DNA of 61,092 bases, the filler included. It is 5 parts of 5 records of this genome, joined end to end, with 100 filler letters (N's around TTAATTAATTAA, not from the genome) between each part and the next. Parts side by side here need not be neighbours in the genome. Positions count along the whole stretch, not along the records: positions 53,707 to 61,092 come from SRR2962707_1702; 4 more parts are not named here. One strand, given 5' to 3'. The notes beneath the pieces were generated by a model. That model had not been told where the DNA came from. It saw only the letters and a program-made list of their open reading frames with translations, and searched no databases. Made by a program: the position numbers and the translations under genes. This document shows, piece after piece, positions 1 to 61,092 of the stretch (positions are counted from its first letter, which is position 1; every line of letters starts with the position of its first letter).

Positions 1-66
1 TGAGTGACTGGCTGGCTGGCTGGCTGGCTGTGTAGCTGGCTGTGTAGCTGGCTGGCTGGCTGGCTC
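1..66. repeat. (GGCT)n microsatellite at the contig edge, probably intronic
   Basis: Tandem ggct units interrupted by gtgta. Confidence 0.8.
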
Positions 67-204
67 AGTGAATGAGCAACTGTATTTTCGAAATGCCGGT
101 ACCGCGTACTGACTTGCTATGCCGATCCTGACTGACTTGTCTGCTCTGTCTTCTGTCGTCGTCGTCGTTGTTGTTGTTGAAAAAAACTGTTCACCATCGC
201 GTAG

Positions 205-640
205 GGGAGTGATCACAATTGTTCTAATCTCATTCATTATGTGCACGTTGCGCATTATGGCTTTCGACGAAAAGGTCGAGGTTCAGAAAGAATACCTAGG
301 TGTGTGGCGAACTGTGCAACGTGCTCCGTTTGACTGAGCACCAATGCTCGCCAACTGGTGTCCACCTGTAGTTGGCTTTTTTTGCAAAAGTGGGAACGCT
401 GGTGCTAACAACACACCACGAAACCGTTAACTGATTGTAGGCCATGCGGACATATACTTGAGCGCAATGAAATGGCGCAACGAACGGAATTGGTGGATTG
501 CCCTGTACGCGCTTACGTTGTACATGTTCCTGTACTTGTACAACCACACTCTGAAAGGGCACCTCATGACCGTCGATGGGCTGGCTCGTGCACGAATCAA
601 CGCTGACAACAAGAACGCTGACGACAAGAAAGACAGCTAA
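205..640 (+). CDS. 3' part of a BAP29/BAP31-like ER membrane protein (exons 205-299 and 441-640)
   Basis: GT-AG intron 300-440 joins the TM segment GVITIVLISFIMC in frame to ...MKWRNERNWWIALYALTLYMF. This resembles the BAP31 'RxQRNxYI' TM3 motif. Ends KKDS, an ER-retrieval-like KKxx. Confidence 0.55.
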
Positions 641-868
641 GCATGTGGAATACCCCCCCAGACAACGGTAAAGGCTGAAATCGTGACTATATGTCTGTGA
701 TGCCCAACGACTGTCGAGCGCCCTGTCTTGCGTTTGTTTTTTCACAACATAAAGTTACGGTCACAAGTTCTGGAAGCACGCCAAAAAAAATCGTGCTCGT
801 GTGCCCATGTTCCTCTGGTAGCGCAGCTCGGCTCCCCACTACGAAACAACCTCGGCACGAACACTACT

Positions 869-6800: not shown

Positions 6801-9508
6801 CCTCAGCAGCTCCTGGCTGAGGTCTACAGAACACGGAGCCAGACCAACGCGCAACCAACAACGCAAGCGACAGCATGTCATGTTGCAACTCAGGTCGTTG
6901 CATCTCACAACACCTGGGATTACTGTACATTATTACGTACCCTCCACAAATTTCCAATGGGTTGTAATGAGAACCAGTGGGAGTGTCTTCGTCTTCACTT
7001 GCATTGATTGTGCGAGTAAAATAATCAAAGCATTCTGCAATGTCGCAAAGCAACATCCGAATTGAATACCTAAGTGCCAGAATAAAAGAAAACTGTCAAA
7101 AAGTCCTTCCTGGACAAATGCGCTCAACAACACAACAAACGCAGTCGCAACAGCCACTCACAGCTCCTTTAATGCTTTTTCGTCGTCTAAGTTCCCATCG
7201 TCGTCAACAAGTGTGTCAACGAATGCATATTGAATCGGACATGCTGCAGCAAACCGAATCGCTGCAAGCGTTCCCTGGGTGTCAGGAAACGAGAAGACGG
7301 TGTCGGGTGTGATACACGCGGCTATTTTTCCAGCGGCATTGGCAAGCGTGCATGTAGTGAAAAGTAAATACACAAAGTGCATTGACGTACTGCACTTGTT
7401 TCGTCGCTGGCCGAGTCCCATGTCGTGACGTCACTAAAACTCGTAACAAGCTGACGCAGTCTCGTCAAGTACCTGATACAAATAGCAAACAACGATAGAT
7501 CAACCGAACGCTGCAAATGTAAGTTCCGGACGTGCCATATCAAAGCATACCAATTCGTTTCAACAATAAGGTCAACAGTGTACATACTCTGCTCCTTCAG
7601 GTTCTTCTACTGCGAGCGTTTTGACATCGACCACAAACTGCAACTCCATTGCACGGTCTTTCAAGACTCCAAGAGCAGTGGATCCTGGTTGAACATCAAC
7701 ATCACCCTCCTCAGAAGCGTCGAAGAGCTCAGAACCGGAAACACGGGTGATAATACGAGGTTCGCCGCCCTCGTGGCCATCATTGATTAAAACGTCGTAA
7801 GTTGGTGCCCAGCGGTCGTCGTGGCGCTGCACAACACGACCTGAGATCAATTCTGATCTGTTTGGGGGCAACACGCTGGAAGCAGCAGGGTTTTGTGAGC
7901 GACTCTGACGTCGCTTGCGAGGAGACGCAGCTGCAGAGCGTGGATTAAAGTAGACGGTGTCGCCCACTGCACGCAAAGGGCCATCAAATTGTGCCCGAGC
8001 GGCGGCACTCGGGGCTTTGGGAAGCGGCGCGCGTACAAGCCCAATTGGTACATGCTCTTGGAGGGTACCTGGGCAAGGCAGAGATATTGTGGGCAATAGA
8101 TATCAGACCATGGCAACCGTGAAGCCCAGATGCGAGCGAGCGCCACAACAACGTGTTGACAAATAGGGGGAGAAAATTGCAAACACCTATCAACGCGTAT
8201 TCAAAATGGAAGTGAGAAAGTCTGGAAAAACTGCGTACCGTCCCAAAGCCGAACCGCAACAGTTTGCCCGCCTGTAGCCATATGAGCGTGAGAAATATAA
8301 CCTCGGCACCACTTCTTCTTCGCCTTAGATCCAGATGGTGTTGCAGGGATTTCGCTGTCCTCGTCGCCGAGCTCATCCTCATCACTTGCATCGGGAAAAG
8401 AGGCAACCTCTACTTTCTGGCCAAACGCAAACCCTGGAGTGTCTAAAGGCGCCGGTGTTTTCTCAATTACTCTGCTGTTCCCTCCGTAAGAACCAAGGGA
8501 CTCGTCTTCACTGCTTGAATCACTGTTGGAATAGTTTTCCTGCGTATCAAAGAAAAAAAGTAGAGCAATTGATGAGAGTTTTCAGAGGTTCAGTTCATGC
8601 ATTTTGTCCGAGTTACCGGCCCTTCACTTGGCGCCTTGAATGCGAAACCGCAATCCCACAAAAACGCAACGCCAGCCCACAAAGCAACGACAGGGTCCAC
8701 TGCGTTTTTTTTTCTCGTGACGACACACCTCATTTGATGGGTCCAACGTGTTCAAGATTCGCGTAAGCGCAGAAAGCCCAGAGGCGTCACGCTTGTTCCG
8801 CGCGCGGTGATTGGCGAGGACTCGTTGCATCCCATCAAAGAAGGCCACGTAGTCCACTTTGTGATCTCCGTCATCCATGCGCTCTGTGCTGAGCTGCGCT
8901 TCACCGGACCCTGTCAACAAAAGTTCGATAAAAGCGTCACTTTCATCATGCGTTGTGGAGGTTGCATCAGTGGCGCTAGTGTCTGGGGCTGAAGTGGGCA
9001 AGCCAGCCGACGTTCTGCGAGCCACATTGGTCGCTACGTCCTGCAGTGTGTAGGCTAATGACATTAGCAGAATCGTCAACTCGCTGCTGGAGATCCACGC
9101 GCGATTGTTGAAGTCCATGAAGTTGAAAACAGCAGATATTTTCGAGTTGATCGGTGCATTGGACAACAGATAGTACGTGACAACGAGGCCGACGGCGTCG
9201 ATCACATCCGTTTCGCTCGCAGGCTTTGGTCTTGCTGAAGCGTCAGGACCGTTGTTCCGCGCGCAGTGAAACGTCCTCCACACTGCATCAAGATTGTGCT
9301 CGTCGTGGCTTCCAGTGCTGCTGAACAGCGTCGCAAATTCGTCGCGAGTGATGCCAAAACCCATGCCGTGAATGCTCCACTGCGCCTCCATCTTCTTGGG
9401 AACTATAATGTCGCAGCTCCACGGCCCAGCGCGGCCCAGTCCCAGCTGTTGCCCATTCTCGAGGGCATCAGCAGACGTGGTGAGCAGCTGAGCCCACTGC
9501 TGACCCAT
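869..9508 (-). CDS. Large multi-exon eukaryotic gene: MG- start (possible myristoylation), EF-hand, two Tudor/Agenet-like modules, 10 helical repeats
   Basis: ATG 9508 (MGQQWA); EF loop DFNNRAWISSSE; FGQKVEV...WCRGYI...VAVRLWDG and GDTVYF...GRVVQRH...TYDVLINDG. The GT-AG junctions I traced keep the frame and the last exon ends ...LAEPFF TGA at 869. Not every exon boundary was resolved. Confidence 0.65.
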
Positions 9509-9845
9509 CCTACAAGAATCACCTTGTTGTGTATGCTGTTGCTGCTGCTGCAGTTGGTAAACTGTCACACCGACCGAAGTGAGCAAAAAAATACGCAAGT
9601 GTGGACACAACAAGTCCGGCAATAAGGTCACAAGAAAACAACCAGAAAATCAAGGAACAAAGAACACGAAGCGGATAAGAGAAACACTCCCGAGCTCACG
9701 GGTTCTGCGCGGGAGTGGGTGAGTCTTTGAGAGTGTGAGGTCTCGCATGGATGAGTCCGTGAGTGAGCGAGTTCGCGAGCGTGAGTCTTTGTTTTTGATT
9801 TTGCGAAGAGTGTTTGCGAGTCTTCGTGAGTGAGTGAGTCGTGGT

Positions 9846-9945
9846 NNNNNNNNNNNNNNNNNNNNNNNNNNNNNNNNNNNNNNNNNNNNTTAATTAATTA
9901 ANNNNNNNNNNNNNNNNNNNNNNNNNNNNNNNNNNNNNNNNNNNN
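9846..9945. other. Artificial contig spacer
   Basis: 44 N + TTAATTAATTAA (stops in all six frames) + 44 N. Confidence 0.98.
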
Positions 9946-10491: not shown

Positions 10492-12066
10492 ATGACCCCA
10501 CTCGCACGCTTGCAACTTTCGATGATCGCTGCTTTGGGGATCTGCGCCGGATTTGCACCCTCGGCACGGTCCGACACCCCCGATGCGCTGGCTCTGCCGC
10601 ATTTGGATGCACTGCCCCGGACCACGGTCGAAACCGCCCGCATCCGCGCTTCGGTTCTTGCCACCACGGATTTCAGCGGACCCGAACCGTTCGAGGCGAA
10701 TTCAGGCGGCGCCGCAACCGTTCGCGCCCGCGCAACCGCAGATGCCTTTTCCCAGTCTTCGGGCAACATTCCCTTTGAACGCGAACTGGATTTCAAGGTC
10801 GGTGATGGCCTGTTCCGCAAACTCTGGGTGTCGTCCCCATCCTCGACCCTCGTCTCGGATGGGCTGGGGCCGCTTTACAACGCACGTTCCTGTCAGTCAT
10901 GCCACCTAAAAGATGGGCGTGGTCACCCGCCCGAGGGGTCGGACGATGATGCGGTCTCCATTTTTCTGCGCGTTTCTGTGCCCTCTACTGACGACGCACC
11001 GATGACCAAGATCGAAGCCTTCCTTGCCGGCATCGGAGAAGCAGGCCCGCGCACCCGGCCCGATCCGGTCTATGGCGGGCAGCTGCAGGATTTTGCGACG
11101 CAGGGCCACAAGGCTGAATACCGCTTTGACGTGGCCTATACCGAAAAACCGCTCAGCCTTTCGGGCGGCGAAACCGTGTCGCTACGCGTACCGACATATA
11201 CCGCTGCCGACCTTGGCTATGGTCCGCTTGGCACCGGTGCGATGCTGTCACCGCGCGTCGCGCCGCAGATGATCGGCCTTGGTCTGCTCGAAGCGATTCC
11301 GGCGCAGGATATCATCGCCCTGGCGGACCCCGATGATGCGGATGGGAACGGAATCTCGGGGCGGGTGCAAAAGGTCTGGTCGTTCGAACAGGACCGCCCA
11401 ATGCTGGGCCGTTTCGGGTATAAGGCCGGCGCGCCGACGGTCCGCGAACAATCTGCTGCGGCCTTTGCCGGGGATATCGGCATTTCTTCGCCGATCTTTA
11501 CTGCCGGTTTCGGCGACTGCACGGCAGAGCAGGCAGACTGCCGCACCGCCCCCGATGGCAGCACAGGTAGCCCCGAAGGCACCGAAATCGGGGCCGAGGG
11601 ATTGGATCTTGTGACCTTCTATTCCCGCAATCTGGCGGTCCCGGCCCGGCGCCGCGTTGGGGATGCACAAGTCCTGCGGGGCAAGCAGGTGTTCTATGAA
11701 ACCGGCTGCATCGCGTGCCACCAGCCGAAATTCGTGACCTCCCGCCTCGAAGATCAGCCCGAGCAAAGCTTTCAGCTGATCTGGCCCTACACCGATCTGC
11801 TGCTACATGACATGGGGTCGGGCCTGGCAGACAACCGCCCCGAAGGGCGTGCCACCGGAACAGAATGGCGTACGGCCCCGCTTTGGGGCATCGGCATGAC
11901 CGAAACGGTGAGCGGTCAACAAAACTATCTGCATGATGGCCGCGCGCGCAGCCTGCTCGAGGCCGTGCTTTGGCACGGAGGAGAGGCCGAGAGCCAGAAA
12001 CAGGCGGTCATGGACATGCCCCCCGCCGACCGCGACGCCTTGATCAGCTATTTGGAGAGCCTGTGA
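10492..12066 (+). CDS. Di-haem oxidoreductase family protein (DHOR, putative peroxidase)
   Basis: Signal peptide; CQSCH and CIACH haem motifs; DGLGPLYNARSC, WRTAPLWGIG, YLHDGRAR. Confidence 0.92.
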   Translation: MTPLARLQLSMIAALGICAGFAPSARSDTPDALALPHLDALPRTTVETARIRASVLATTDFSGPEPFEANSGGAATVRARATADAFSQSSGNIPFERELDFKVGDGLFRKLWVSSPSSTLVSDGLGPLYNARSCQSCHLKDGRGHPPEGSDDDAVSIFLRVSVPSTDDAPMTKIEAFLAGIGEAGPRTRPDPVYGGQLQDFATQGHKAEYRFDVAYTEKPLSLSGGETVSLRVPTYTAADLGYGPLGTGAMLSPRVAPQMIGLGLLEAIPAQDIIALADPDDADGNGISGRVQKVWSFEQDRPMLGRFGYKAGAPTVREQSAAAFAGDIGISSPIFTAGFGDCTAEQADCRTAPDGSTGSPEGTEIGAEGLDLVTFYSRNLAVPARRRVGDAQVLRGKQVFYETGCIACHQPKFVTSRLEDQPEQSFQLIWPYTDLLLHDMGSGLADNRPEGRATGTEWRTAPLWGIGMTETVSGQQNYLHDGRARSLLEAVLWHGGEAESQKQAVMDMPPADRDALISYLESL

Positions 12067-13052
12067 GACATTTTCCATCCCTCATTGCCGCGCTGACGCT
12101 GATTGCCGGACCGGCCGCTGCTGATCTAACCAGTGCGATCGACGACCATATCCTGCCGGGCTATGCCGCCTTTGCCCAAACGACGGCGGCGTTGCACGAT
12201 GCCGCCGTAGACAACTGTGCGCCCGATACCCTGCGTACCGATTGGAACGCTGCCTTCGACGCCTGGATGGGCGTCAGCCACCTGCGCTTTGGCCCGATTG
12301 AGGAAAACGGTCGTTCGGTCATCGTCGCCTTTTGGCCGGATGCCAAGGGCATGACACCCAAGGGGCTTGGCCGTCTGATCGCGGACCAAGACCCCATTGT
12401 GCAGGACCCCGAGTCGTTCAAAGATGTCTCGGTTGCTGCACGGGGTCTCTTTGCGCTGGAATTTCTGCTGTATGATCCGCAGTACGACGCGACCGCCCCC
12501 TATACCTGCGATTTGATCCGCGCCGTGACAGGGGATCTGGCTGACATCGCGGGCACGGTCAGCGCCGCCTGGAAAAACGGTTATGCCGACATGTTGCGCA
12601 CCGCCGGCGCGGCCGGAAACGCCACCTATCTGACCGAAAAAGAAGGCCTGCAGGTGCTGTACACCAACCTTCTTGCCGGGCTGGAATTCACTGCGAATGA
12701 TCGTCTTGGCCGCCCGCTTGGCACCTTTGACCGCCCGCGCCCCAACCGGGCCGAAGCGCGCCGTTCGGAGCGGTCCCTGCGCAACGTCGCGCTGTCCATC
12801 AAGGCACTCAAAGATCTGACGGACACGCTGGTCGACGAACCTTTGCCCCAGACCGATGCCGCCTTTGACAACGCTACAGAAACGGCTGCAAATCTCGATG
12901 ACCCGACCTTTGCCAGCGTCATCGACCTCAGCGCCCGGCTCAAGGTCGAAATCCTGCAACAAAAGGTCAAGGCGGTCGAAAATGGCGTGCTCGCCGAAGT
13001 TGGTCCGGCCCTTGGCGTGAGTCAGGGGTTCAACGCGGGCGACGGGGACTGA
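12063..13052 (+). CDS. Imelysin-like periplasmic protein (peptidase M75 family)
   Basis: GTG overlaps the DHOR stop; signal peptide; RFGP, FWPD, GLFALEFLLY, LGVSQGFNAGDGD C-terminus. Confidence 0.85.
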   Translation: MRHFPSLIAALTLIAGPAAADLTSAIDDHILPGYAAFAQTTAALHDAAVDNCAPDTLRTDWNAAFDAWMGVSHLRFGPIEENGRSVIVAFWPDAKGMTPKGLGRLIADQDPIVQDPESFKDVSVAARGLFALEFLLYDPQYDATAPYTCDLIRAVTGDLADIAGTVSAAWKNGYADMLRTAGAAGNATYLTEKEGLQVLYTNLLAGLEFTANDRLGRPLGTFDRPRPNRAEARRSERSLRNVALSIKALKDLTDTLVDEPLPQTDAAFDNATETAANLDDPTFASVIDLSARLKVEILQQKVKAVENGVLAEVGPALGVSQGFNAGDGD

Positions 13053-13053
13053 G

Positions 13054-14133
13054 ATGACCACAAGGCGCGGTTTCCTGGCGTCGCTTTTGGCCGCTTCGGC
13101 GCTGCCGACGCTGTCTTGGGCGGATGCGGGCAGTCCGCGATACCTAGCGGCGGCGCGCGAACCGGACGGCGGTTATGCGTTGTTCGGGTTGGATGCACTT
13201 GGCCAGGATACCTTTCGTGTGGCGCTACCCGCGCGTGGCCACGCGGCGGCAGGACATCCGCACAAACCGCTGGCCGTAGCCTTTGCTCGCCGTCCCGGGA
13301 CCTATGCGCTGGTGATCGACTGCGCCGATGGCCATGTATTACACCGTCTTGCGTTGCCAAAGGGGCGCCGTTTCAACGGGCACGGCACCTTTTCCAGCGG
13401 TGGCGGCGTGCTCTACACCTCTGAAATTGACGCTGCGTCGGGGCAGGGGGTGATCGGACTTTGGGATGCGACACGCGGCTATCTGCGCACCGGCGAATGG
13501 GCATCCCACGGGATCGGCCCGCATGAAATCGCGCGTCTTCCCGGGACGGACGATCTGGTCGTGGCCAATGGCGGCATCCACACCGCGATGGATGACGAAC
13601 GCACCATGCTGAATCTTGATACCATGGCCCCCAACCTCAGCTATTTTAACGCGCAGGGCGATCTTCTGGATCAGGTCACCCTGTCGCTGGACCTGCACCG
13701 CAATTCGATCCGCCACCTGGCGCTGCGATCGGATGGGCTGGTGGCCTTTGCCATGCAATCCGAAGATCCGGAAGGTCAATTTACGCCGCTGTTGGGTCTG
13801 CACAGGCAGGGCGCGGCGCTTGTGCTGGCGTCGGCCCCGGACCCACAGCAGATGCGCATGAAAGGCTATGCCGGCAGCATCGCCTTTAGCGGGAATGGCG
13901 CGCAGGTGGCCCTGACTTCGCCGCATGGTGGGGTGGTCAGCCTGTACAGCGCCGACGGTCAGTTCCAGACCATGCTGACCCGTGCGGATGTCTCTGGTGT
14001 CGGCCCTGCAAAGGGCGGCTTCATGACGACGGATGGGCTTGGTGGTCTGTGCGCTATCACCAAAGAAACCCTAACCCCTGTCACCTCGGCTCCGCGCGCC
14101 TGGGACAATCACCTGGTGACGCTGCCGGTCTAG
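13054..14133 (+). CDS. DUF1513 Tat-exported beta-propeller protein
   Basis: TTRRGFL twin-arginine signal; LPARGH, FARRPG, GIGPHE, ANGGIHT, WDNH motifs. Confidence 0.88.
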   Translation: MTTRRGFLASLLAASALPTLSWADAGSPRYLAAAREPDGGYALFGLDALGQDTFRVALPARGHAAAGHPHKPLAVAFARRPGTYALVIDCADGHVLHRLALPKGRRFNGHGTFSSGGGVLYTSEIDAASGQGVIGLWDATRGYLRTGEWASHGIGPHEIARLPGTDDLVVANGGIHTAMDDERTMLNLDTMAPNLSYFNAQGDLLDQVTLSLDLHRNSIRHLALRSDGLVAFAMQSEDPEGQFTPLLGLHRQGAALVLASAPDPQQMRMKGYAGSIAFSGNGAQVALTSPHGGVVSLYSADGQFQTMLTRADVSGVGPAKGGFMTTDGLGGLCAITKETLTPVTSAPRAWDNHLVTLPV

Positions 14134-14230
14134 GCAAGAGCTGATCGCCTGTTCACACAGGCCCCAGGGCCTAAGCGGTTTCGCGCCCGCCTGATCCGCT
14201 GTAGACGGTTGGAAACAGTTGGGGGCAGGC

Positions 14231-14710
14231 ATGAACAAAACACGGTATCTGGCAGAGGTCAGCGCTTCGCCCTTTCGGCGCGTGGTCGGGTTGGGGATCC
14301 TCTGGTGCCTTGGTGGGTTGCTGATTTACATGGCAATAGGCAAGCCGCTGGCCATCGGTTGGCAGATGCTTTTGGTGCTGATGGGGGCCTGCGCGCTCTG
14401 GCTCGGCTATATGATGATGCGCGCCACGACCCTTTCCCTGCACCTGACGGAACACGATCTGCGCGATAGCGCGGGCACGATACTGGCCCGGATTGAGGAC
14501 GTTGAAAAAATCGACTCCAGTGCCTTTTCACTGAAGCCGTCGAACGGATTCACGCTGATCCTGAAGCAACCGCAAACACGTTGCTGGCGGCCGGGGCTGT
14601 GGTGGCGGTTAGGTCGGCGCGTCGCGGTGGGGGGCGTTACAGCCGGATCGCAGACACGCCCCATGGCCGATATGATTGCCTTGCTGAAGGCCGGTCAAAA
14701 GCCGGACTGA
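14231..14710 (+). CDS. Conserved hypothetical membrane protein (2 TM + soluble domain)
   Basis: Two hydrophobic helices; FSLKPSNGF and WRPGLWWRLGRRVAVGGVT motifs. Confidence 0.7.
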   Translation: MNKTRYLAEVSASPFRRVVGLGILWCLGGLLIYMAIGKPLAIGWQMLLVLMGACALWLGYMMMRATTLSLHLTEHDLRDSAGTILARIEDVEKIDSSAFSLKPSNGFTLILKQPQTRCWRPGLWWRLGRRVAVGGVTAGSQTRPMADMIALLKAGQKPD

Positions 14711-15034
14711 CGCTACGGGCCACGCCCACTGTCATGACACCCTTGCCCGGGTGTTTGACCCATTCGACACCGTTTCGCCGGATGTCGTGACCAAGGTCAC
14801 GCTTTGGGGCCGAAACACACAGGCTTTCAGTAAAATTAGCGGATTATGAAGGTTTCTAGGCCTCTGTCGCCAGAAGCCGCTTTGGCCGGACGTCGGAGCG
14901 AAATGGCCGTTCCGGTGCGCCGCCGGGGTCCGTTGGAAATTGAGGGGCGTCATTCGGTAGGGGCTGGACTAGTGTGAAAGCACGAAAAACAGACGAAACC
15001 GAGTCGTCGACCGTCATCGATTTAGGAGGATTTG

Positions 15035-16471
15035 ATGTCTGCCACACCCACCCAAGAGCCGAGCTTTCGCGAAAGCGTCGATCTCATGTTCACCCGCGCG
15101 GTTGCACTGATGGATCTCAGCCCGGGGCTCGAAGAAAAAATTCGCGTCTGCAACGCCACTTATACGGTGCGCTTTGGTGTCCGGCTGCGCGGCGGCATCC
15201 AAACCTTTACCGGTTATCGGTCGGTCCATTCCGAACATATGGAACCGGTCAAGGGCGGCATTCGCTATGCCCCAAACGTCCATCAAGACGAGGTAGAGGC
15301 GCTTGCCGCGCTAATGACCTACAAATGCGCCCTTGTCGAAGCGCCTTTCGGTGGCTCAAAAGGCGGGCTGCGGATCGATCCACGGGAATACACCGAACAC
15401 GAACTGGAACTGATCACACGTCGGTTTGCCTATGAACTAGCCAAACGTGACCTCATTCACCCGTCGCAGAACGTTCCTGCCCCCGACATGGGCACTGGGG
15501 AACGCGAAATGGCCTGGATCGCGGATCAGTACCGTCGCATGAATACCACCGACATCAATGCAGCCGCCTGCGTTACTGGAAAGCCGTTGAATGCGGGTGG
15601 CATCGCCGGCCGGGTCGAGGCGACGGGCAGGGGCGTGCAATATGCGTTACAGGAATTCTTTCGCCACCCCGAAGACATCGCCAAGGCCGGTCTTTCAGGC
15701 ACGCTCGACGGCAAGACGGTGATCGTTCAGGGACTTGGAAACGTTGGATACCACGCCGCCAAGTTTCTGAGCGAGGAAGACGGCTGCCGCGTAACAGGCG
15801 TGATCGAGCGGGACGGGGCGGTGACCGATCCCGGCGGCATCGACATCGAAGATCTGCATCAATGGATCGTCGCGAACGGCGGCGTTACCGGCTACACCAA
15901 AGGTTCCGTGACCCAGAATGGCGACGCGGTGCTGGAAGAACCCTGCGATATCCTGATTCCGGCCGCGCTTGAGGGGGTCATTAACCTGACCAACGCCCAC
16001 AACATTCAGGCCCCGCTGATCATCGAAGCGGCCAATGGCCCGATCACTGCCGGCGCGGACGAAATTCTGCGCGAAAAGGGCACGGTCATTATCCCCGACA
16101 TGTTTGCCAACGCCGGTGGTGTGACGGTGTCCTACTTTGAATGGGTCAAGAACCTTAGCCACATTCGCTTTGGCCGGATGCAACGCCGACAGGAGGAATC
16201 GCGCCACCAGCTGGTCGTGGATGAGCTGGAACGTATCTCTGAATCGCTGGGCAAGACCTGGTCGCTAAGCCCGGATTTCAAACAGAAATACTTGCGCGGC
16301 GCAGGAGAGCTTGAGCTAGTCCGGTCGGGCCTGGATGACACGATGCGCATCGCCTACCAATCCATGCGCGAGGTTTGGCATGGGCGCGGGGACGTGACGG
16401 ATCTGCGCACGGCGGCCTATCTCGTCTCGATCGGCAAGGTCGCGGCAAGCTATCGCGCCAAGGGGCTGTAG
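15035..16471 (+). CDS. gdhA: Glu/Leu/Phe/Val family glutamate dehydrogenase
   Basis: SD AGGAGG; PVKGGIRY, PFGGSKGG, VPAPDMGT, QGLGNVG, EAANGP, NAGGVTVSYFEW. Confidence 0.95.
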   Translation: MSATPTQEPSFRESVDLMFTRAVALMDLSPGLEEKIRVCNATYTVRFGVRLRGGIQTFTGYRSVHSEHMEPVKGGIRYAPNVHQDEVEALAALMTYKCALVEAPFGGSKGGLRIDPREYTEHELELITRRFAYELAKRDLIHPSQNVPAPDMGTGEREMAWIADQYRRMNTTDINAAACVTGKPLNAGGIAGRVEATGRGVQYALQEFFRHPEDIAKAGLSGTLDGKTVIVQGLGNVGYHAAKFLSEEDGCRVTGVIERDGAVTDPGGIDIEDLHQWIVANGGVTGYTKGSVTQNGDAVLEEPCDILIPAALEGVINLTNAHNIQAPLIIEAANGPITAGADEILREKGTVIIPDMFANAGGVTVSYFEWVKNLSHIRFGRMQRRQEESRHQLVVDELERISESLGKTWSLSPDFKQKYLRGAGELELVRSGLDDTMRIAYQSMREVWHGRGDVTDLRTAAYLVSIGKVAASYRAKGL

Positions 16472-18379: not shown

Positions 18380-18479
18380 NNNNNNNNNNNNNNNNNNNNN
18401 NNNNNNNNNNNNNNNNNNNNNNNTTAATTAATTAANNNNNNNNNNNNNNNNNNNNNNNNNNNNNNNNNNNNNNNNNNNN
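18380..18479. other. Artificial contig spacer
   Basis: 44 N + TTAATTAATTAA + 44 N. Confidence 0.98.
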
Positions 18480-42937: not shown

Positions 42938-43037
42938 NNNNNNNNNNNNNNNNNNNNNNNNNNNNNNNNNNNNNNNNNNNNTTAATTAATTAANNNNNNN
43001 NNNNNNNNNNNNNNNNNNNNNNNNNNNNNNNNNNNNN
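42938..43037. other. Artificial contig spacer
   Basis: 44 N + TTAATTAATTAA + 44 N. Confidence 0.98.
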
Positions 43038-50182: not shown

Positions 50183-51208
50183 GTGGGTAAAAAAGATAAT
50201 ATTTACAGAGCTGTAACGCTAAAAGATGTTGCCGCTGCAGCCGATGTCAGCGTTATCACAGCTTCGCGGGCACTGCGCACGCCGGATATTGTTTCCGGCA
50301 AGGTACGCGAACGCGTTCAAGAGGCTGTTGATGCGCTCGGATACGCGCCAAACCAGGCGGCGCGGGCGCTCGCTTCAGCCACCACATCGACAATCGGCGT
50401 GCTGATCCCTTCGGTGACCAATCTGGTTTTTTCCGACGTGATGCGCGGGATCTACGATGCCGTTGAAGGCACACCCTATCAGGTGCAGCTGGGCAATACG
50501 CGCTACACCAATCGCAAGGAAGAAGAGTTGCTCAGGGTGTTTGCCGCCCAGCGGCCGGCGGGCTTGATCGTTTCAGGGATCGACCAGTCGCAGACGGCGC
50601 GGGCCCTTTTGGAAAGTTTTGGCTGTCCGGTGGTCCAGATCATGGATATCGGGCCCGACCCCATCGACATGATGATCGGGTTCGATCACCGCGAGGGCGG
50701 ACGGGCGGCGGTGCGTCATCTCATTGCAAACGGATACCGCCGTATCGGGTTTATCGGGGCGCGCATGGACCCGAGGGCGCAACGGCGGCTCGACGGCTAC
50801 AGCGAAGTGCTGCATGCCGAAGGGCTTTATGACGAACGCCTGATCCTGACCTCGCCGCAAGCGTCCTCGGTGGTGCGGGGGAGCGAGATGTTTGCCGATT
50901 TCCTCGGGCTAGTGCCCGACGCGGACGCTGTGTTCTGCAACAATGACGACATGGCGCTGGGTGCGCTGTTCGAGTGCCAGAGGCGGCATATCCGCGTGCC
51001 GACCCAGTTCGGGATCATGGGGTATAACGACCTCGATTATACGGCGGTGAGCAACCCGACGGTCTCATCGATCCGTACCCTGCGCTACGACATGGGTTAT
51101 CGGGCCATCGAGATGATTATCGCTGCGTCCAAGGGCGAGCGGCCCGATCCGGCGGTTGTCGATGTGGGGTACGAGCTCAAGGCCCGTCAGAGTACGGACC
51201 GCAGATAA
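50183..51208 (+). CDS. LacI-family regulator (GntR/IdnR-like)
   Basis: TLKDVAAAADVS.ITASRAL, LGYAPN..AR.L, VFCNNDD.A.G. Confidence 0.92.
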   Translation: MGKKDNIYRAVTLKDVAAAADVSVITASRALRTPDIVSGKVRERVQEAVDALGYAPNQAARALASATTSTIGVLIPSVTNLVFSDVMRGIYDAVEGTPYQVQLGNTRYTNRKEEELLRVFAAQRPAGLIVSGIDQSQTARALLESFGCPVVQIMDIGPDPIDMMIGFDHREGGRAAVRHLIANGYRRIGFIGARMDPRAQRRLDGYSEVLHAEGLYDERLILTSPQASSVVRGSEMFADFLGLVPDADAVFCNNDDMALGALFECQRRHIRVPTQFGIMGYNDLDYTAVSNPTVSSIRTLRYDMGYRAIEMIIAASKGERPDPAVVDVGYELKARQSTDRR

Positions 51209-51239
51209 AAACCGAGATTCCGGGAGGACAGATCAAACA

Positions 51240-52229
51240 ATGAATATCCTGATTATCGGGGCCGCCGGCATGGTCGGACGCAAGCTTACGGACGCGCTTG
51301 CCACATCGGGCACATTGGCGGGCAAGCCGATCGAGGCGCTAACGCTGGTCGATGTGATCGAGCCCGAAATGCCGCAGATGGACGGTGTGGACCTCACCAC
51401 GCGGGCTATCGACATTGCCGATCCAAGCGCGGCCGAAACGCTGATCGCCGAGCGGCCCGATGTGATCTTTCATCTCGCTGCGATTGTTTCGGGCGAGGCC
51501 GAGCTCGATTTCGAAAAGGGCTACGCCATCAATCTCGATGGCACGCGGTATCTGTTCGAGGCGATCCGGCAGGCGGGGAAGAACGAACCCTATTGTCCAC
51601 GTTTTGTGTTTACCTCCTCGATTGCAGTGTTCGGTGCGCCGTTTCCCGACAAGATCGGGGACGAGTTTTTCCTGACGCCGCGCACCAGTTATGGGACGCA
51701 GAAGGCGATCGGGGAATTGCTGCTGGCCGACTATTCGCGGCGCGGGATTCTCGATGGGGTGGGCATCAGGCTGCCGACCATCTGTATCCGTCCGGGCAAG
51801 CCCAACAAGGCGGCCTCGGGGTTCTTTTCTTCAATCCTGCGCGAGCCGCTGGTGGGGCTCGAGGCCGTGTTGCCGGTCAGCGAGGATGCGCGGCATTGGC
51901 ACGCCAGCCCACGGGCTGCCGTGAGGTTTTTGATCCATGCGGCGGAGTTGGATACCGCGGTGCTCGGGGCGCGGCGGAGTTTGAACATGCCGGGGCTATC
52001 GGCGACGGTGGGTGAGCAGATCGAGGCGCTGCGACGTGTGGCCGGAGACGAGGCGGTCAAGCTGATCCGGCGCGAACCCGATGCCATGACCGCCGAGATG
52101 GTCGAAGGCTGGGCCAAGGATTTCGACGCCTCGCGGGCGCTCTCGCTTGGGTTTGTGGCCGAAGCCTCGTTCGATGAAATCATTGCCATCCATATCGAGG
52201 ACGAACTGGGCGGGGAGCTGCCGAAATGA
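51240..52229 (+). CDS. denD: D-erythronate dehydrogenase-like extended SDR
   Basis: [42 protein letters not shown]. Confidence 0.8.
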
Positions 52230-52972
52230 AAATTGCAATCGTGACCGGTGGCGGCACCGGGGTGGGCAAGGCGATTGCCAAAGCGCTTTACGCAGATGGA
52301 TTTGCCGTCGCGCTGTTCGGGCGGCGGCAGGAGGTGCTTGAGGCGACGGCCGCAGAGATCGATGCGGGCGGCGAAAAGGTTCAGGCGGTGTCTGTGGACA
52401 TTGGCGACCGGGCCGCAGTCGGGGCGGCGTTCGAGACTGTGATCGCCCGATGGGGGCGGCTCGATCTGCTGGTCAACAATGCGGGGATGAACGCGCCTTC
52501 GGTTGCGTTGGAGGACGTTTCGGCAGCGCAATGGGACCAGGTGGTGGGCGCGAATCTGTCGGGGGCGTTTTTCTGCACGCAGTTCGCATTCCGCCAGTTC
52601 AAGGCGCAGAGCCCGCAGGGTGGGCGGATCATCAACAACGGTTCGATTTCGGCCACAACGCCGCGTCCGCAATCGGCGCCCTATGCGGCGACCAAGCACG
52701 CAATCACGGGGCTTACCAAGGCGTCGGCGCTCGACGGGCGGCCTTTCAACATTGCGGTGGGGCAGATCGACATCGGCAATGCGTCCACGGACATGACGAC
52801 GCGGATGTCTTCGGGCGTGTTGCAGGCCGATGGGTCGATGGCGGTGGAGCCGACGATCGATGCGGATCATATCGCTAGGGCTGTGAGCTATATGGCGGGA
52901 CTGCCGTTGGAGGCCAATACTTTGACCATGACGGTGATGGCGACCCAGATGCCGTTTGTCGGCCGGGGGTAG
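52226..52972 (+). CDS. Short-chain dehydrogenase/reductase
   Basis: [30 protein letters not shown]. Confidence 0.92.
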
Positions 52973-53606: not shown

Positions 53607-53706
53607 NNNNNNNNNNNNNNNNNNNNNNNNNNNNNNNNNNNNNNNNNNNNTTAATTAATTAANNNNNNNNNNNNNNNNNNNNNNNNNNNNNNNNNNNNNN
53701 NNNNNN
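53607..53706. other. Artificial contig spacer
   Basis: 44 N + TTAATTAATTAA + 44 N. Confidence 0.98.
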
Positions 53707-53732
53707 TTGTTGTTGTTGTTGTTGTTGTTGTT
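53707..53732. repeat. (TTG)n microsatellite at the contig edge
   Basis: Tandem ttg. Confidence 0.85.
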
Positions 53733-53885
53733 CGGTAGCGTTTCTGACGGCAGCTCCACAGCGTTGTCGGTAGCAGCAATTGCAGCAGCAATAGCAGCAG
53801 AAATTGCAGCGACAACGGCAACAGCGGCTGCCCGGCCCCAAAAAGTCAGCAGCAATTCTGACGGGTTCTAGACTCTTCACTCAGT

Positions 53886-56800
53886 ATGAGGAGGGCGTGG
53901 GGACCCCAGATAATAATAGGGCGCGCAACTGCGCTGTTAGGGGTGCTGCTTGTTGCAGTTTGGGCCCCCGCAGCACGGGCGAGCCTGAAGCACCCGGTGC
54001 ACGGCCGCAACCAGTACTCACGCCCAGTGGATGTGAAGGACAGTATGTACCACCAACTGGACAACACGGACTTCTTCAAAGACAACGTTGAGCCAGTTAC
54101 CTACCGCAAGAGCCTTGCGCAAAAGAAGAAGGAGCAGGAGCAGCAGCAGCAGCAGTCGGGGCAGAAAGTCAACAGTGGAGCCAAGGATACCCTCGGGGAT
54201 ATTTTTGGCACATGGGACAACGTCAATGATGCACAAAGTGCAGGTTCTCCCCAAATGAACGACAGTGCCGTTGGCCGCAATCTGATGCTCAACGATTGGC
54301 TGACGTGGGAGGAGGCAGCCGACGATGGAGAGCTGGGCCCTCTTCGAATCACCTATGTGACAGAGTTCTGGGATCAAGGTGAGCAACAGCTGGAGGCGAC
54401 GGAGCACTGCGCTCGGGAAGGCCAGTTTGTGCGGCCGAGCGAAATGACAGCCACGACAGTCGGCGGGTCTGGCTCAATCGTGTGCACAGAAGATGATATT
54501 GTCACCAACGTAACCGTCGGAATTGTCAATCTACGTCTGGATTGGGTGAAAGAGTACGTAGCAGCTCAAAAGCCTTTCGGTGCAGCAGAACGTGTGCTTG
54601 TCCACCTAGCGCGCGCGCGGTGTCAAACCTTGTTGTTACCAAGGCGAAATGAACTACTTTTTATTGCGTTCCGTCCAGGTACGTGGCAGAGACCTTCACC
54701 GTCAAACAAGTGCAACCTGGTGAAGGCGTGACGATCAATAGCAATGCACAAGAAAACTACCCGTTCTCACAGACGACTTTTACGGACACCGACTTGGTGA
54801 TTGTGGTCACGTTGCACCCAATTTCTGCCGGAGGCATTGCCGGCTATGCTTTTTGTGCCCAGTACGACCAATTTGGTCGGTGCACAGTCGGTTACTTCAA
54901 TTGGGTCCCCGACGGCCTTTCAGTGGCATCCACCTTTTACTATCCCAACGTTGCAATGGCGGAGCGCTCTACCGCTTTGCACGAGGTCCTTCACGTGGTT
55001 GGTTGCTGCAAAGACACCAACCTGTTCCGCCACCCCGACGATGGGTCGCCGTTTGCAGATGAGGAAAAATGGATTGTTGAATCAGAGTCGACTTTCATTG
55101 ACAAACAAATTACGAAGTGGATCACGCCAGGCGTTTTGGCGGCTGCGCGTGAGCAGTTTAATTGCACGTCCATCACGGTACGGCAAATCTTGCCTTGTAG
55201 TTGTCCTAAATTGTGTGCTGCAGTGCTTGTCATTACGTGATGGTTATTCCGAACCTCTGTATGAGAATCTCACACCACTTCAAATTTCCAACATGTGTCC
55301 ATGGGTTACAATTAACGGTGCAGGGTGTCCCGCTTGAAGACGTCCCGCTTGGTCAAAACGCGCATTGGGAAGCCCGGCTGTTGGGCCCTGATGTGATGAG
55401 CTATGGGATTGGCTCAGGCGAAAGCTACGTTTCATCCCTCACACTGAAGTTTTTCAACGACACAAATCAGTGCGTTTCGTAGGAGTTGCCGAATCATGGG
55501 TTTTTCGAGTTCGTGGCATTTTTTCATTCTGCTTTGTTCTGCTGCCGTAGGTATATTGTGAACATGACTGCTGGGGCTCAGCGCATCTACCCCGCCTCTG
55601 GTGATGACCATGACCTCGCCTTGAGTGCTTTTGCAGATATTTTTGCGTCGACCGAGTCTGGAGATGCTGTTATGCTGCAAGAAAGAACCTGGTCGCCTGG
55701 GTATCTTCGCTGGGGACGCAATGCCGGCTGCCCATTCGTTCAGGTAGGTGTTTGTAACTGAATGTCGTGTGTGTGACCCTTCCATCGACTGCTGTTTTGG
55801 TGCACTCGCCGCGCGCGAAGAATATCTGGATGGACGATGATGCTTAACCCCGTGGTGGTGTGTTTTTCGCTGTGTGCAATACGTCTGCTGTCCGATACAG
55901 CAACCTCCAGGTCCAGAAAACTGGGGAGATCGATATTTTTGTACTTCCAACAACAAACGGCAATGTACTGGGGACAGGCGGATGTCAGCTGCTTGCTATT
56001 TATTGGAGTACAGCTCCGCTGCCAATGACGCTGGCGATGTCTATTATACGCGCAGCGATACATCACCTTCAGACACTTCTGAAGTGGCGAATGTGAATGC
56101 TCCATATCTTCCAAATGAGTGCGTGCATGTCGGATGCCTTCAGCCTCCTGCGTTAGCTTCAGATGACACGGGCACGCATTTTGCTTCTGATAATGAAAAT
56201 GGTTGTGGTGTTTTTTAATGTTGCTGCTCCTCTCCCAGGTACCAGTATCTAGTTGAGTTCGATCTGGCGAATTGGGGGGGATATAGCAGCTCAATGGACT
56301 TTGCACCCGTGGCGTATGGAATCTGGAATTGCCAGGCAAGCTGAGTTGGTTTCGAGTTGCCAACCACGAACCAGCTCCACTTTATCATTTCCCCTCATTG
56401 TGCAGTTTTTCTTTTTCTCGCAGGACCAAGAACCATCATTGGATGACGTGATCGCGATGGAAGGCGTTGAATTTGTCGATGCTGGTGATCTGTTCAGCAG
56501 TACAGCGAGTGATGTTGCACAATTTGGAGGCCAAGTATTCTCGGCTCATTCTCGTTGCTTCGATTCATCGCTGTTGCAGTACGTGTTTCTGGCATCCACA
56601 AATTTTATTGCCCGTATTGATGTTCGAGCATGACATGCGGTTCGTCGTTTGTACTCTCCAACCTGTTCGTTGTTGCGCGTGGGCTTCCAGGTACACAGAA
56701 GTGCAGTACCTTACCGCCGACTTCCAGTCTTTTGGATTGTGCTACTTGAGCAACTGCTACACAGACAATTACCTCCAAATTGGCCTCAAGACTTCATTAG

Positions 56801-58981
56801 GTGGCATCAAGTGGTTTCGCTGCCAAGAGGCTGGCGACGTTTACGTTTCCGGGTTTATCGGAACGTTTACCTGTCCAGATCCTGCTGACTTCTGCGCGTG
56901 AGTGTCTCTTTCTGTGTTTTGAACTTGACGTCGTTGGACTCTTGCGGTCGGCAACGTTGGCTGAACATCTACTGCTTGCTGCACTCTAGGTATGAAGATG
57001 TTTCCGGAGTCAAGTACACGGAAAATAACGAAACACTTGAGTGGATTTTTTGGGGAGTACTTCTAGGTCTCATCCTGATTCTCTTCATTGTTTTCTGTTG
57101 CTGCCGCAAGGTGCGGCAGTGCGTCGCACTAAAACTGAAGCAAATGATGAACTTCGACCTTACGCACAAGTACCTTCCGAAGGAGCACAGGTCCCCAGGG
57201 TTTTGGGTTCTCACAATTATTTGTGTGATCTGGGATATCGTGGGTGCTGCGCTCATCGTCATCGGTGTCATTGCTATCATCGACACAACTGGCGAATTGT
57301 TATGGGAGACAGCATCACGCCAGGTCTACCACTTCATTGGGCTTGGAATCTTCATCGTTATCCTCTCAAGCTTGGGAACAATGTCGGCCAAGGCCGACCA
57401 TCCAACCCTCAAGGCTGCAATGTTCGTTCCTGCTAACTGCGCAACAGTTCTTGCATCCATGCCTTCTGATTGCTTGCATGAAAGCCAAATTTGCAAGCCT
57501 GTCTGCCTTGTATTTTGCAGCAGCACGCCGTGTTGGCGAGCTTCGGCTCATTCTTTGTCTTGAAGTGCGGGCTTTGTTGAATCTATGGTTGTGTTGTCGT
57601 GGCTTGGCCTTGCAGATACTTCTACAGTGTCTTGTTTTTGCTGATCGCCGCAGTATTTCTTGCCATCATCGTTTTTGCGGTGCCCGCGTGGCTGCAAGTC
57701 ATCGTGGAGTTGACATGGGATACACTCCACGCACAGTTCCCGGACAGTTGGCAGCTGTACACGGCACAACAGGCTTGGGATGAAATGATGGTTATTTTCA
57801 ATGAAAACTCTGCATACATTTACCTGGGAGTTGGCTGGTCTGCACTTTCGATGCTGAGTGGCCTTGTCATCACCTTCATCATGCTCGAGTTCAAGAATGT
57901 TATTGGGACAATGCTGTTCTGGATGAACGTGGTAATCCTGGTTGCTGGTATCATCTTCATTTGGGCATGTTCCGCATTAGCCGAGGTGCTACCGCAAGCT
58001 ACTTTGGTTGGCCTTTTGGTGCCAGGGTGCATAATTGTCATCGTGGGCATTGTTGGAGTCGCAACCTGTCGCAATACGGATGTCTTAGTAGCGTAAGTGC
58101 CACCGATACATGGTGGTGTTTTTTTAGTCGTGTTTCATTGAATATATGTCATGTATGTATGGACATGTTGCTGGAATGCGAGATGACCTTGCATTCGCCC
58201 CTTGCGCGCGCGCAATTTGGCACGTCTCAGGTATCTTATCGTAACGGGGCTCGGTTTTATTGCCATGCTGGCAGCGGGTATCTGGCTTTTGGGTTCGGTT
58301 GAGGAGAACTCTGCAATCGTTAATAATTTGACAGTGTCCCAGTTGGGCGACTTGGTTCAAAAACTTGAGTTTTTTGCTTCCGAATGGACGGAGGCAGAGA
58401 TTCGCGCCTGGTTGGACGCGAATCTGCAGGCTGCTGGCATTGCTGCAATCATCCTCAGCTTTGTTGTCCTTGGTACCATTGGTGCCGCAGTCATTGTTCT
58501 CCGCAGTTCGCAGGTATGTGCGCGCACAGTGGAAAACCAATTTGCCACTGAAAGTGTTCGCCGTCCGGCGAGCGGTTGTGCGCTGTGTTCCATTTGCTTG
58601 TTTGTTGTCTGTAGCTGCAGTTGCGGGATACATCTGACATGCGCGGTTTGGTCCTGTTGCCAGGTCATCAAGAAAAAACTCGAATTGGAGCAAGCATCGA
58701 AGCGCATGGACGTGAGCGGCGCCCGGGTAAGTCAAACATTGATGGCTGTGCTCCAAACGCGACGGCAAGCTGTGCGCCACAAAGAATAACGCTTGTATGA
58801 TGTCTATGTGCTGTGGTCACTGTCTGTCATCCAGGAGTGGGAACATAGTGCGTCGACAGGATTCTCATCTACAGAAGAATCTGGTCTTGAAATGGGTGAA
58901 ATCCGTTTTGCCGAGCCGGTTGAAGAGGTTCGGTATGCTGAGGACAACGAATACGTTAGTCGTAGCGGAGGGCGTGTGTGA
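53886..58981 (+). CDS. 13-exon gene: signal peptide + leishmanolysin (M8) metallopeptidase + TM + two tetraspanin-like 4-TM modules
   Basis: HEVLH (54980-54994), VPLED..AHWEAR...DVMS, WGRNAGCPF, SRCFDSSL, CPDPADFC. Twelve introns keep the frame: 54554-54678, 55178-55323, 55470-55550, 55744-55900, 56119-56238, 56336-56423 (GC-AG), 56579-56690, 56898-56989, 57422-57615, 58093-58230, 58514-58663, 58727-58834. Confidence 0.8.
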
Positions 58982-59075
58982 CTTGTTCCGAGAGCGATAT
59001 TTCTAAGCATTTCAAAGGTTTTTCGTAGCATCTCTCAGTGCAACAACACCCATTTTTGTTTTGCAATGAGCCAAG

Positions 59076-60949
59076 TTAAAAACTCAAAGCCTCCTCGCCC
59101 GCATCAGCTTCAATAGCGCCTGCGCCCATGGATACGTCGCCCTCACTCGCGTGATCAGCCCCCTCTTCCGCGCCGTAATTCATCATGAGTGTCTCCAAAA
59201 TAGCGTCACCATCCGCCAAATCAGATCCTGTCGGAGTTGTGGCACTCTCCTCGTCTATGTGAGGGGCAGGACTAACGTCCACCCCCATCCGCGCGAGCGC
59301 ACGCGGCGAAGCAGCTGCTTGTGTTTGGACTCCCTCCAAATTCTTATTTTTTGGTTTCGGAGGTGGTGACAAGTCTCTGCCACTTGTTTGAGAAGAGTGT
59401 GCGTTCGCAACACCATCTTTTGACGGAGTTGCTTCGCTCTCATGGGTGTGATCGATATTGTTCGAGTCCGGTGCGTCCTGGCCACCTGCTGATTCAACAT
59501 GCTGCTCCTGACTTTGTGTTTGCGGTTGTGGCAACTGCGTGGCTTCCTGGACGGGATTTTCCTGCGTAGAAGTCGTTGTCGAAGTGGTGTCTGGCGCCGC
59601 CCCCTGCGAAACGGGGGCTTTGGATTCGGCTTTTACCTGAGCGGCTTTCCGAACTGCGCTGAGCCCCTTCTTGCCTCGGGCCGCAGATGGTGCACCCCGC
59701 GGTTTTCCACTGCTGCCAATCCGTGCGCTTTTTGTTCCCGATAACCCAGGGCCAGATTTTTTGCGAGCACCATTACCATTCGTACCTGCAGATCGACGCT
59801 GCCGCGAAGTGGATGCAGAGTCTGGTGGCGGTGGTGTCGACGAAGATGACAATCCGATATTCTGGCGAAGCCTGCTGCCCCCTGTTGGCGTTGGCCGACG
59901 GCGTGTGCCATTGCTGGCAGCGTTTGAACCGGCTCCACGTTGCAAGAACCCCGTGGATCGCCGACGATCTGCCGCGGCTGCAGCAGTCGGAGACGACCCT
60001 GCAGTTCGCCCCAATGACCCTTTTGACTTGCTGGTAATACGGCCTGTGGACGACCGCCGACCTAGGCTCCCGCCGGGAACAAGTCCACGCTCGTTCTTGG
60101 CCTTGCGCTGCGCATCATTTTTGTTTTTCCACGTGTTCAGCAGCACCTAATGGCAAACAAGTCAACAAAAGGCAAGTCAACACCACACAGCTCTTGCAAC
60201 GAAATCACAGCCACGACGACTGCGCGTGTGTGTCGGAGTGGAGGTTGCCCCGGAATTCATCAAGCGCGCAAACGAACCTTATTTCGCTGCTGTGCTTCTC
60301 GTTTGAGTTTGTCCAGCGACGACGAAGATGCGGGAGCGGTTGGCGACAGCAGTGGGGCGTTTGTCAGTTGAATGACTTCGTGCACTTTGGAGGCTGCTGC
60401 AGCCGACGAGGTTCCACTGCGAGTGCTTGAACTGGGTGGCACCGCGGCACTGGTGCTGCCAGCTGCCACCGGAGCTTGCTGCTGCAGTTGCGACGCGTGG
60501 CCAGCTTGGCGCGTGGTGAGGGCACGGACATGTTTGCGCAGCTTCGTCAAACTTTCCTCCAGCGCCTGGAGGCGGGCCTGGGTGGCAGCCTCTGTGCTCG
60601 CCCCAGACGTTGCGCCCGCAGTCGCTGCCGCTGCCGCAGCGTCCGCCTCAGGTCCAGCAGTGAGCGAGCTAGACCGTGAGTCTTCACTAGCACCAACTGC
60701 ACTGACAGCACTGACAGCACTAGCAGCACTATCACTATCACTAGCACCAGCACGTGTTTGTGTCTGTGTTTGTGCTTGGGAAAGACGACGCACAAGTTCT
60801 CGCTGGGCGAGCAGCGGCAGGTTAGGGTCAGCCAGCCACAGCAGGCTTCCAACGTCTGCGACGCTGCTGAGGTAGGCGACGAGAGCCTTATGGTGCTCCG
60901 CAGGGGTGGACCACCCAGGGGCTGGTAGCGGTGGCAAGGTGAGCGGCAT
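59076..60949 (-). CDS. Two-exon low-complexity protein with a short coiled coil, function unknown
   Basis: ATG 60949 (MPLTLPP); GT-AG intron 60147-60277 in frame; stop at 59076, convergent with the M8 gene. Confidence 0.6.
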
Positions 60950-61092
60950 GACGACGAACAACAACGACAACAACAACCAATCCGCTTTCCTGCTTTTGGT
61001 TTTTCGGTTTGCGTTTGTTGTTTCCTCAAATAATAAGCAACAGCCACGCGCACACGCACACACGCACAAAGCACACAAAGCACACAAAGCAC

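Follow-up and report, generated by a model that had tools for sequence, protein, structure and literature searches.

Short introns directly before tyrosine codons in a leishmanolysin-like gene, and a possible TA-targeting origin

Tc1/mariner transposons duplicate a TA at their target site. In the introner-like elements of Symbiodinium and of Polarella glacialis classes 4 and 5, the insert carries the 3' AG and the donor comes from a 4-nt GHNN duplication, as far as the account in bioRxiv 10.1101/2020.10.14.339549 and in Fig. 2B of PMC9860276 goes, and the same sources, from Roy and co-workers, present insertion-site requirements as a driver of intron phase bias. The introner elements of Micromonas pusilla, as outlined in a review (PMC11282704), make a 3-nt duplication and have inverted termini, and introners shorter than 200 nt that lack transposon features are discussed, in part of a further study, as possibly mobilised by the spliceosome (bioRxiv 10.1101/2024.03.26.586863). 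Here we analyse a gene for an M8 (leishmanolysin-like) peptidase, referred to as the M8 gene, in a 61,092-nucleotide stretch of DNA (the 61-kb window), along with an unrelated intron-rich gene of the same organism, and we find that the phase-2 introns of both are concentrated directly before Tyr codons. We refer to introns followed by N-T-A-Y in the downstream exon as the TAY class and to all others as ordinary. Our literature search found no paper linking phase-2 introns, or an excess of phase 2, to Tyr codons.

The introns of the window share some properties with each of these systems. As in the Symbiodinium and Polarella elements, the first letters of the intron equal the start of the downstream exon and the motif at the site sets the phase; those elements, as far as the cited accounts describe them, form recognisable families with inverted termini, a duplication that varies between loci, donors that include GC and GA, and a predominance of phase 0. 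In contrast, no family, inverted termini or locus-specific duplication was seen in the window organism, which has a fixed N-T-A-Y, GT donors, and an excess of phase 2 that goes with a single amino acid. The likeness to Micromonas lies in short (~100-200 nt) non-coding inserts and in one splice site being taken from the target, whereas the Micromonas elements of that review co-opt the acceptor AG from the duplication, carry the donor themselves, and exist in thousands of similar copies; no similar copies were seen here. The cases outlined by Roy and co-workers resemble ours in that the frame distribution of the motif predicts phase, as the distribution of GTAY in the M8 gene does, but they yield a phase-0 excess rather than the phase-2 excess of this organism. 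TA is an invariant part of the exon motif, as it would be for Tc1/mariner; element termini, a transposase and a preserved left copy of TA were not demonstrated for the window introns, and membership of that group is not established.

Tyrosine codons behind the introns

The window joins five contigs, of which contig E holds the M8 gene and contig A the second gene. Our data consisted of these two contigs, public runs X1 and X2 on contig E, and related metagenome loci. The M8 gene lies at 53886-58981 on the plus strand, with its ATG at 53886 and a TGA stop at 58981, and its 13 exons splice into an open frame of 1194 aa. Exon 2 matches the Pfam family Peptidase_M8 (PF01457; E 5.2e-8, 32.5 bits against a gathering cut-off of 21), and the zinc-site motif HExxH is present in the translation as HEVLH. 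The protein combines a protease part with a C-terminal multi-transmembrane part; the latter, of ~470 aa, is encoded by exons 9-13 (56990-58981) and has many transmembrane stretches, with weak Tetraspanin Pfam matches below cut-off. All 12 introns are bridged at the model coordinates by a single 5592-nt contig of run X2, the kind of which we guess to be RNA, while none of the 12 joints is found in X1, a DNA-type run from which the window may derive, in which case it is not independent. The transcriptome-derived protein P0001 (728 aa) is identical to residues 1-728 of the spliced model. It ends at ...DFCA because intron 8 (56898-56989) is retained in the isoform behind it, where the joint GC/G TGA gives an immediate in-frame stop; retention of either intron 8, with its GTGAGT donor, or M10, with its GTAAGT donor, halts translation at once.

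With GT-AG and GC-AG borders allowed, the model has seven phase-2 introns, five of phase 0 and none of phase 1, a count that the original prediction had given and that both the gene model and the X2 joints reproduce. Its reading of an N-TAY behind each of the seven phase-2 introns (GTAC, GTAT, GTAC, GTAC, GTAT, ATAC, GTAT) was exact, and intron 1 and exon 2 do both start with GTACGT; M11 and M12 fall just beyond the span 54554..58230 that it covered. The introns are listed below, all on the plus strand, with a slash at each exon-intron border.

M1, 54554-54678, phase 2, GA/GTACGT...CAG/GTACGT, Glu/Tyr, TAY class
M2, 55178-55323, phase 0, ACG/GTACGG...CAG/GGTG, ordinary, no counterpart in the related locus L003
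M3, 55470-55550, phase 2, CA/GTGCGT...TAG/GTAT, Gln/Tyr, TAY class
M4, 55744-55900, phase 0, CAG/GTAGGT...CAG/CAAC, same position as L003 intron 2309-2388
M5, 56119-56238, phase 2, GA/GTGCGT...CAG/GTAC, Glu/Tyr, TAY class
M6, 56336-56423, phase 0, GC-AG, CAG/GCAAGC...CAG/GACC, same position as L003 intron 2796-2877
M7, 56579-56690, phase 2, CA/GTACGT...CAG/GTAC, Gln/Tyr, TAY class
Intron 8, 56898-56989, phase 2, GC/GTGAGT...TAG/GTAT, Ala/Tyr, TAY class
M9, 57422-57615, phase 2, AT/GTTCGT...CAG/ATAC, Ile/Tyr, TAY class; a joint without positional ambiguity
M10, 58093-58230, phase 2, GC/GTAAGT...CAG/GTAT, Ala/Tyr, TAY class
M11, 58514-58663, phase 0, CAG/GTATGT...CAG/GTCA, same position as L003 intron 5175-5246
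M12, 58727-58834, phase 0, CGG/GTAAGT...CAG/GAGT, same position as L003 intron 5310-5377

The genome-wide test that had been proposed was approximated on the 31 introns in the three eukaryotic genes of the window, whose phases 0, 1 and 2 stand at 15:1:15. Thirteen of the 15 phase-2 introns lie directly before a Tyr codon, namely 7/7 in the M8 gene and 6/8 in the contig-A gene, even though Tyr makes up only 44 of 1194 codons in the M8 protein and 29 of 1686 in the contig-A protein. Every possible phase-2 site was then counted in these two coding sequences, with the following result.

Phase-2 sites followed by TA: 73 sites, 13 with an intron
All other phase-2 sites: 2804 sites, 2 with an intron
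Phase-2 sites followed by T[CGT]: 418 sites, none with an intron
G/TA sites: 26, 10 with an intron
G/TG sites: 26, none with an intron
G/TC sites: 35, none with an intron
G/TT sites: 50, none with an intron

Chance is excluded as the source of the Tyr link (TA against all other phase-2 sites, Fisher p = 6e-20). The enrichment is specific to Tyr and spreads neither to other T-starting codons, so that the expected excess over these is borne out over the two genes taken together, nor to the donor-like GTG (G/TA against G/TG occupancy, p = 7e-4). A filter that simply keeps any good donor can therefore be ruled out, because G/TG sites are empty (0/26), yet 5/14 TAY-class introns use GTG donors. About half of the introns of the organism (14/31) belong to the TAY class. 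They are short (81-194 nt), the last letter of the upstream exon is not G in 13/14 of them, whereas it is G in 14/17 of the others, and donor positions +5/+6 read GT in 12/14. Among phase-0 and phase-1 introns, TA at +2/+3 of the exon occurs only at A2 of contig A (GTAC) and at intron 4 of L003 (ATAT). GTAY sites of the M8 coding sequence are distributed over the three phases as 3/7/18, with 18/28 in the frame of a wobble G followed by TAY, and the frame distribution of the NTAY/GTAY motif accounts for most, not all, of the phase bias.

The contig-A gene (2350-9508, minus strand) encodes a 1686-aa EPEG..Y repeat protein unrelated to the M8 gene, and its spliced model reproduces the transcriptome-derived P0008 (1686 aa) exactly. 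Of its 18 introns, nine are in phase 0, one is in phase 1 and eight are in phase 2; a TAY follows six of those eight, and both exceptions sit at classical G-ended sites (GG/A CCT and AG/A GCT). The introns that bear on the argument, all on the minus strand, are the following.

A2, 8069-8238, phase 1, ACG/GTACGC...CAG/GTACCC, the only NTAY-flanked intron of the organism outside phase 2
A3, 7473-7587, phase 2, GA/GTATGT...CAG/GTAC, Glu/Tyr, TAY class, in an EPEGAE/Y repeat
A5, 7070-7161, phase 2, CT/GTGAGT...TAG/GTAT, Leu/Tyr, TAY class
A6, 6824-6940, phase 2, GG/GTACGT...TAG/ACCT, an exception, followed by Pro instead of Tyr
A8, 6372-6471, phase 2, AC/GTAAGC...CAG/CTAT, Thr/Tyr, TAY class, the sole member with C at +1
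A12, 4600-4683, phase 2, GA/GTACGT...CAG/GTAT, Glu/Tyr, TAY class, in an EPEGAE/Y repeat
A14, 3928-4032, phase 2, CT/GTGAGT...TAG/ATAC, Leu/Tyr, TAY class
A15, 3409-3501, phase 2, GA/GTAAGT...CAG/GTAC, Glu/Tyr, TAY class, in an EPEGAE/Y repeat
A17, 2754-2858, phase 2, AG/GTGCGT...AAG/AGCT, an exception at a classical AG/R site, followed by Ala

A3, A12 and A15 lie in paralogous EPEGAE/Y repeats and are perhaps not independent cases; the picture stays the same when they are collapsed. The protein has eight EPEG[AV][EA]Y repeats in all, with an intron in three of the five copies that read GAG TAY and none in the GAA TAC and GCT TAC copies. Introns A9, A13 and A16 have a common 3' end, TTGCACG[AT]AG, and some introns were therefore copied along with the repeats.

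Presence and absence in related loci

A search with exon 2 of the M8 gene returned the full-length homologues P0004, P0006 and P0007, of ~1200 aa, and the partial P0002, which is 77% identical, while the homologue alignment (A1) led to six metagenome loci. The protease and transmembrane architecture is kept in all three full-length homologues. The closest relative found is L003, together with a second gene on L001, with 63% identity over the first 493 residues. According to a spliced alignment, the first exon of L003 runs for ~1.45 kb free of introns and is followed by 16 introns. Four of these sit at the exact positions of M4, M6, M11 and M12, all phase 0, and the one shared with M6 is GT-AG in L003 but GC-AG in the window gene. 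None of the seven TAY-class introns of the M8 gene is shared with L003, against four of the five others (p = 0.010), with M2 also absent. The locus L001a/L002 (P0004) is wholly intron-less, L005 is uninterrupted over the sites of M1-M7, and L006 over that of M1, so that TAY-class introns of the M8 gene are absent from L001a, L005 and L006 wherever the site is covered. No intron interrupts the site corresponding to M1 in L003, L001a, L004, L005 or L006; L004, which is 60% identical and unbroken across the entire gene, is possibly a cDNA and was taken for site sequences rather than for intron absence. Judging from these alignments, the seven Tyr-linked introns are lineage-specific and not ancestral, which was the outcome that the TA-targeting proposal called for in orthologues. 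The two L001 genes, at 5941-9510 and 11751-15378, are tandem paralogues on a single contig from a seawater metagenome; one of them lacks introns altogether and the other has a ~1.45-kb first exon and 16 short introns.

The sites themselves were already in place. The uninterrupted homologous sites of L003 read, in order, GTAC, GTAC, GTAT, GTTC, GTAT, ATAT and GTAC, that is, GTAY at five, ATAT at one and GTTC at one, in agreement with the idea that the Tyr codons preceded the introns. Each of the seven sites encodes Tyr in one or more of the intron-less homologues, and the TAY sites are therefore older than the introns.

The relatives also have phase-2 introns of their own. L003 has a private one at 4186-4251 (CT/GTAAGT...CAG/ATAC) and a probable second, its intron 16, at 5485-5559 (GA/GTACGT...TAG/GTACGT), the acceptor of which is uncertain, position 5559 scoring 32 and position 5577 scoring 23. 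L006 has another at 2521-2730 (GG/GTGCGT...CAG/ATAC). The end of P0005 (...SNQ/CV...) has the look of unspliced sequence continuing into a GTGCGT donor at the position of M3, a hint of an intron there in another lineage. Private phase-2/TAC introns in relatives suggest a recurrent process rather than a single old wave, and the one ancient wave originally envisaged is thus doubtful.

Possible origins of the TAY-class introns

The explanation we favour, at a confidence roughly balanced between its being right and wrong, is that the TAY introns form a separate class, gained in this lineage at existing Tyr codons, with TA-targeting DNA insertion as the most likely cause. Under this explanation, a process of DNA insertion would recognise a target with TA at its centre, which may be the palindrome RTAY, and the resulting intron would sit directly before (G/A)-T-A-(C/T) of the downstream exon. 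The inserted DNA would supply the 3' AG, the G-T of the donor would be contributed by the target, either the original or its duplicate, and an insertion would be viable as an intron when the target letters give a donor and the insert ends in AG. Such a geometry is known from introner-like elements. In the frame in which the motif is most frequent in coding DNA, the stops TAA and TAG would leave only a Tyr codon behind a wobble base, which would give rise to the phase-2 excess as well as the link to Tyr. The TA specificity, the earlier presence of the TAY sites and the restriction of the introns to lineages are observed; a mobile element at work, a donor provided by a target duplication, and the length of any such duplication are what we infer. 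A 4-bp palindromic target may be an alternative to a 2-bp TA combined with the stop-codon argument: R-T-A-Y is its own reverse complement, and both cases outside phase 2, A2 (GTAC) and L003 intron 4 (ATAT), also have Y as the fourth letter.

Several results weigh against TA-targeting insertion. The all-vs-all comparison of 47 introns (31 of the window organism and 16 of L003) gave no meaningful pairs, only chance matches of 9-15 nt, so that the introns are as dissimilar as had been remarked at the outset and form no family within this set. End-to-end complementarity at p<=0.05, our measure of terminal inverted repeats, was found in 1/17 TAY-class and 1/30 other introns. The first 2-4 letters of the intron match the start of the downstream exon, and this match is identical across the whole TAY class; over positions 5-14, an intron matches its own exon at 3.06 of 10 positions on average and the exons of others at 2.76, which does not demonstrate a locus-specific duplication. 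All 14 TAY-class introns have the right TA; the A at intron +3 that a left copy would leave occurs in 8/14 of them and in 10/17 of the other introns, which is no more than the general donor consensus would give. The M9 site reads ATA TAT in L003, and the G required of the target as donor may never have existed there. Phase 2 also exceeds the availability of NTAY, with 7/7 against 51% in the M8 gene and 6/7 against 37% in contig A, where the share after collapsing the three repeat copies is 4/5, and this excess over motif availability is unexplained. The sample is moreover one of 31 introns in three genes, with three of the introns in paralogous repeats. Of the proposed footprint of TA-targeting introners, the TA-specific and lineage-specific gain has thus stood, while the transposon, the TA duplication and the Tc1/mariner affiliation are still conjectural, with no family, terminal inverted repeats or locus-specific duplication behind them.

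Two apparent duplications were considered and rejected. The starts of M1 (GTACGTAGCAG) and exon 2 (GTACGTGGCAG) agree at 10/11 letters and suggest a 9-11-nt duplication, and L003 intron 16 has a similar repeat with one indel, but both are within the range of cross-pairings (maximum 7 of 10). An origin of the introns as tandem duplicates of flanking exon was unsupported, the best of 56 tests giving z = 3.2.

One alternative is that the association arises after insertion rather than through it: introns would arise widely, and in this clade an intron behind an exon whose last base is not G would be well spliced only when RTAY follows, so that only introns of this kind persist. The non-G at exon -1 in 13/14 TAY-class introns, with G in 14/17 others, and the strong donors of the class, with GT at +5/+6 in 12/14, are what such a survival filter would leave, and by sequence alone the pre-existing Tyr sites fit a filter and an insertion preference alike. 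On the other side, a spliceosomal reading of T-A-Y at exon +2 to +4 is not known to us, phase-0 and phase-1 introns do without TA at +2/+3 save A2 and L003 intron 4, and a -1 base other than G mostly follows from its being a second codon position. We regard splicing constraint as quite unlikely to be the explanation. Differential loss, in which the Tyr-linked introns are ancestral and were lost in the relatives while the private introns of the relatives were lost here, strikes us as very improbable. Loss does occur in the family, as the ~1.45-kb intron-free first exon of L003 and the intron-less L001a indicate, and P0005, from a more distant paralogue clade, has its apparent GTGCGT read-through exactly at the M3 site. 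For this reading, however, the ancestor must have had 25 introns or more, with every lineage losing a complementary set, and the link to TA and Tyr would still want an explanation; the hint from P0005 is also compatible with parallel gain at a hot site, with two gains against at least four losses.

Site-specific gain could also have proceeded without a transposon, through reverse splicing into transcripts or single-stranded DNA, or through filler-DNA repair of TA-biased breaks. Such gain would be in keeping with introns of only 81-194 nt that have no inverted repeats, no element family and no demonstrable duplication, and with the class of introners below 200 nt that part of the literature treats as possibly spliceosome-mobilised (bioRxiv 10.1101/2024.03.26.586863). 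We consider it unlikely all the same: reverse splicing would copy existing introns, yet no intron similarity was seen, neither process has a known reason for TA, and the missing signals are equally expected of old, eroded transposon copies. None of these rivals explains the TA specificity better than TA-targeting insertion does.

Other features of the window and wider meaning

The five contigs of the window are separated by spacers of the form N44-TTAATTAATTAA-N44 at 9846-9945, 18380-18479, 42938-43037 and 53607-53706, and are composed as follows.

Contig A, 1-9845, ~50% GC, holds the EPEG-repeat protein gene
Contigs B-D, 9946-53606, 60-65% GC, long uninterrupted open reading frames
Contig E, 53707-61092, holds the M8 gene and a converging minus-strand gene
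Intron of the converging gene, 60147-60277, minus strand, phase 0, AAG/GTTCGT...TAG/GTGC, ordinary; a joint of an X2 contig

Contigs B-D look bacterial, in keeping with the prey or contaminants to be met with when a protist is cultured, and have epimerase-like and short-chain-dehydrogenase-like translations near 51117-52972. On contig E, one X2 contig spans the M8 gene and continues into the converging gene through the region 58982-59080; it is continuous through both, and their 3' ends therefore abut or overlap. An odd joint in another X2 contig, 55880->60391 (AC..GG, side 21), was taken as an assembly artefact. Alternating (GC)n runs are present in five introns (54554-54678, 55744-55900, 58093-58230, 58514-58663 and 60147-60277), and GCGCGC occurs nine times in 3774 intron bases against six times in 8644 exon bases.

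We tentatively propose that a marine heterotrophic protist clade harbours an undescribed, site-specific process of intron creation, either a TA/RTAY-targeting element or a spliceosome-linked mechanism. Such a process would have filled about one third of the sites at which a codon ending in G precedes Tyr, made phase 2 as common as phase 0, and arisen or acted independently in three or more lineages, in some cases striking one site twice. The case touches on two long-standing questions, the origin of new introns and their preference for codon phase, and it ties intron position to the codon of a single amino acid by a simple rule, in which the target has TA and TAA and TAG are stops. If the 10/26 occupancy of G/TAY sites were to hold genome-wide, this organism would offer a natural experiment for studying insertion specificity, for dating gains against intron-less relatives, and for finding the agent. 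It would also mean that insertion-site rules can bring about an excess of phase 2, where the usual bias runs the other way, to phase 0.

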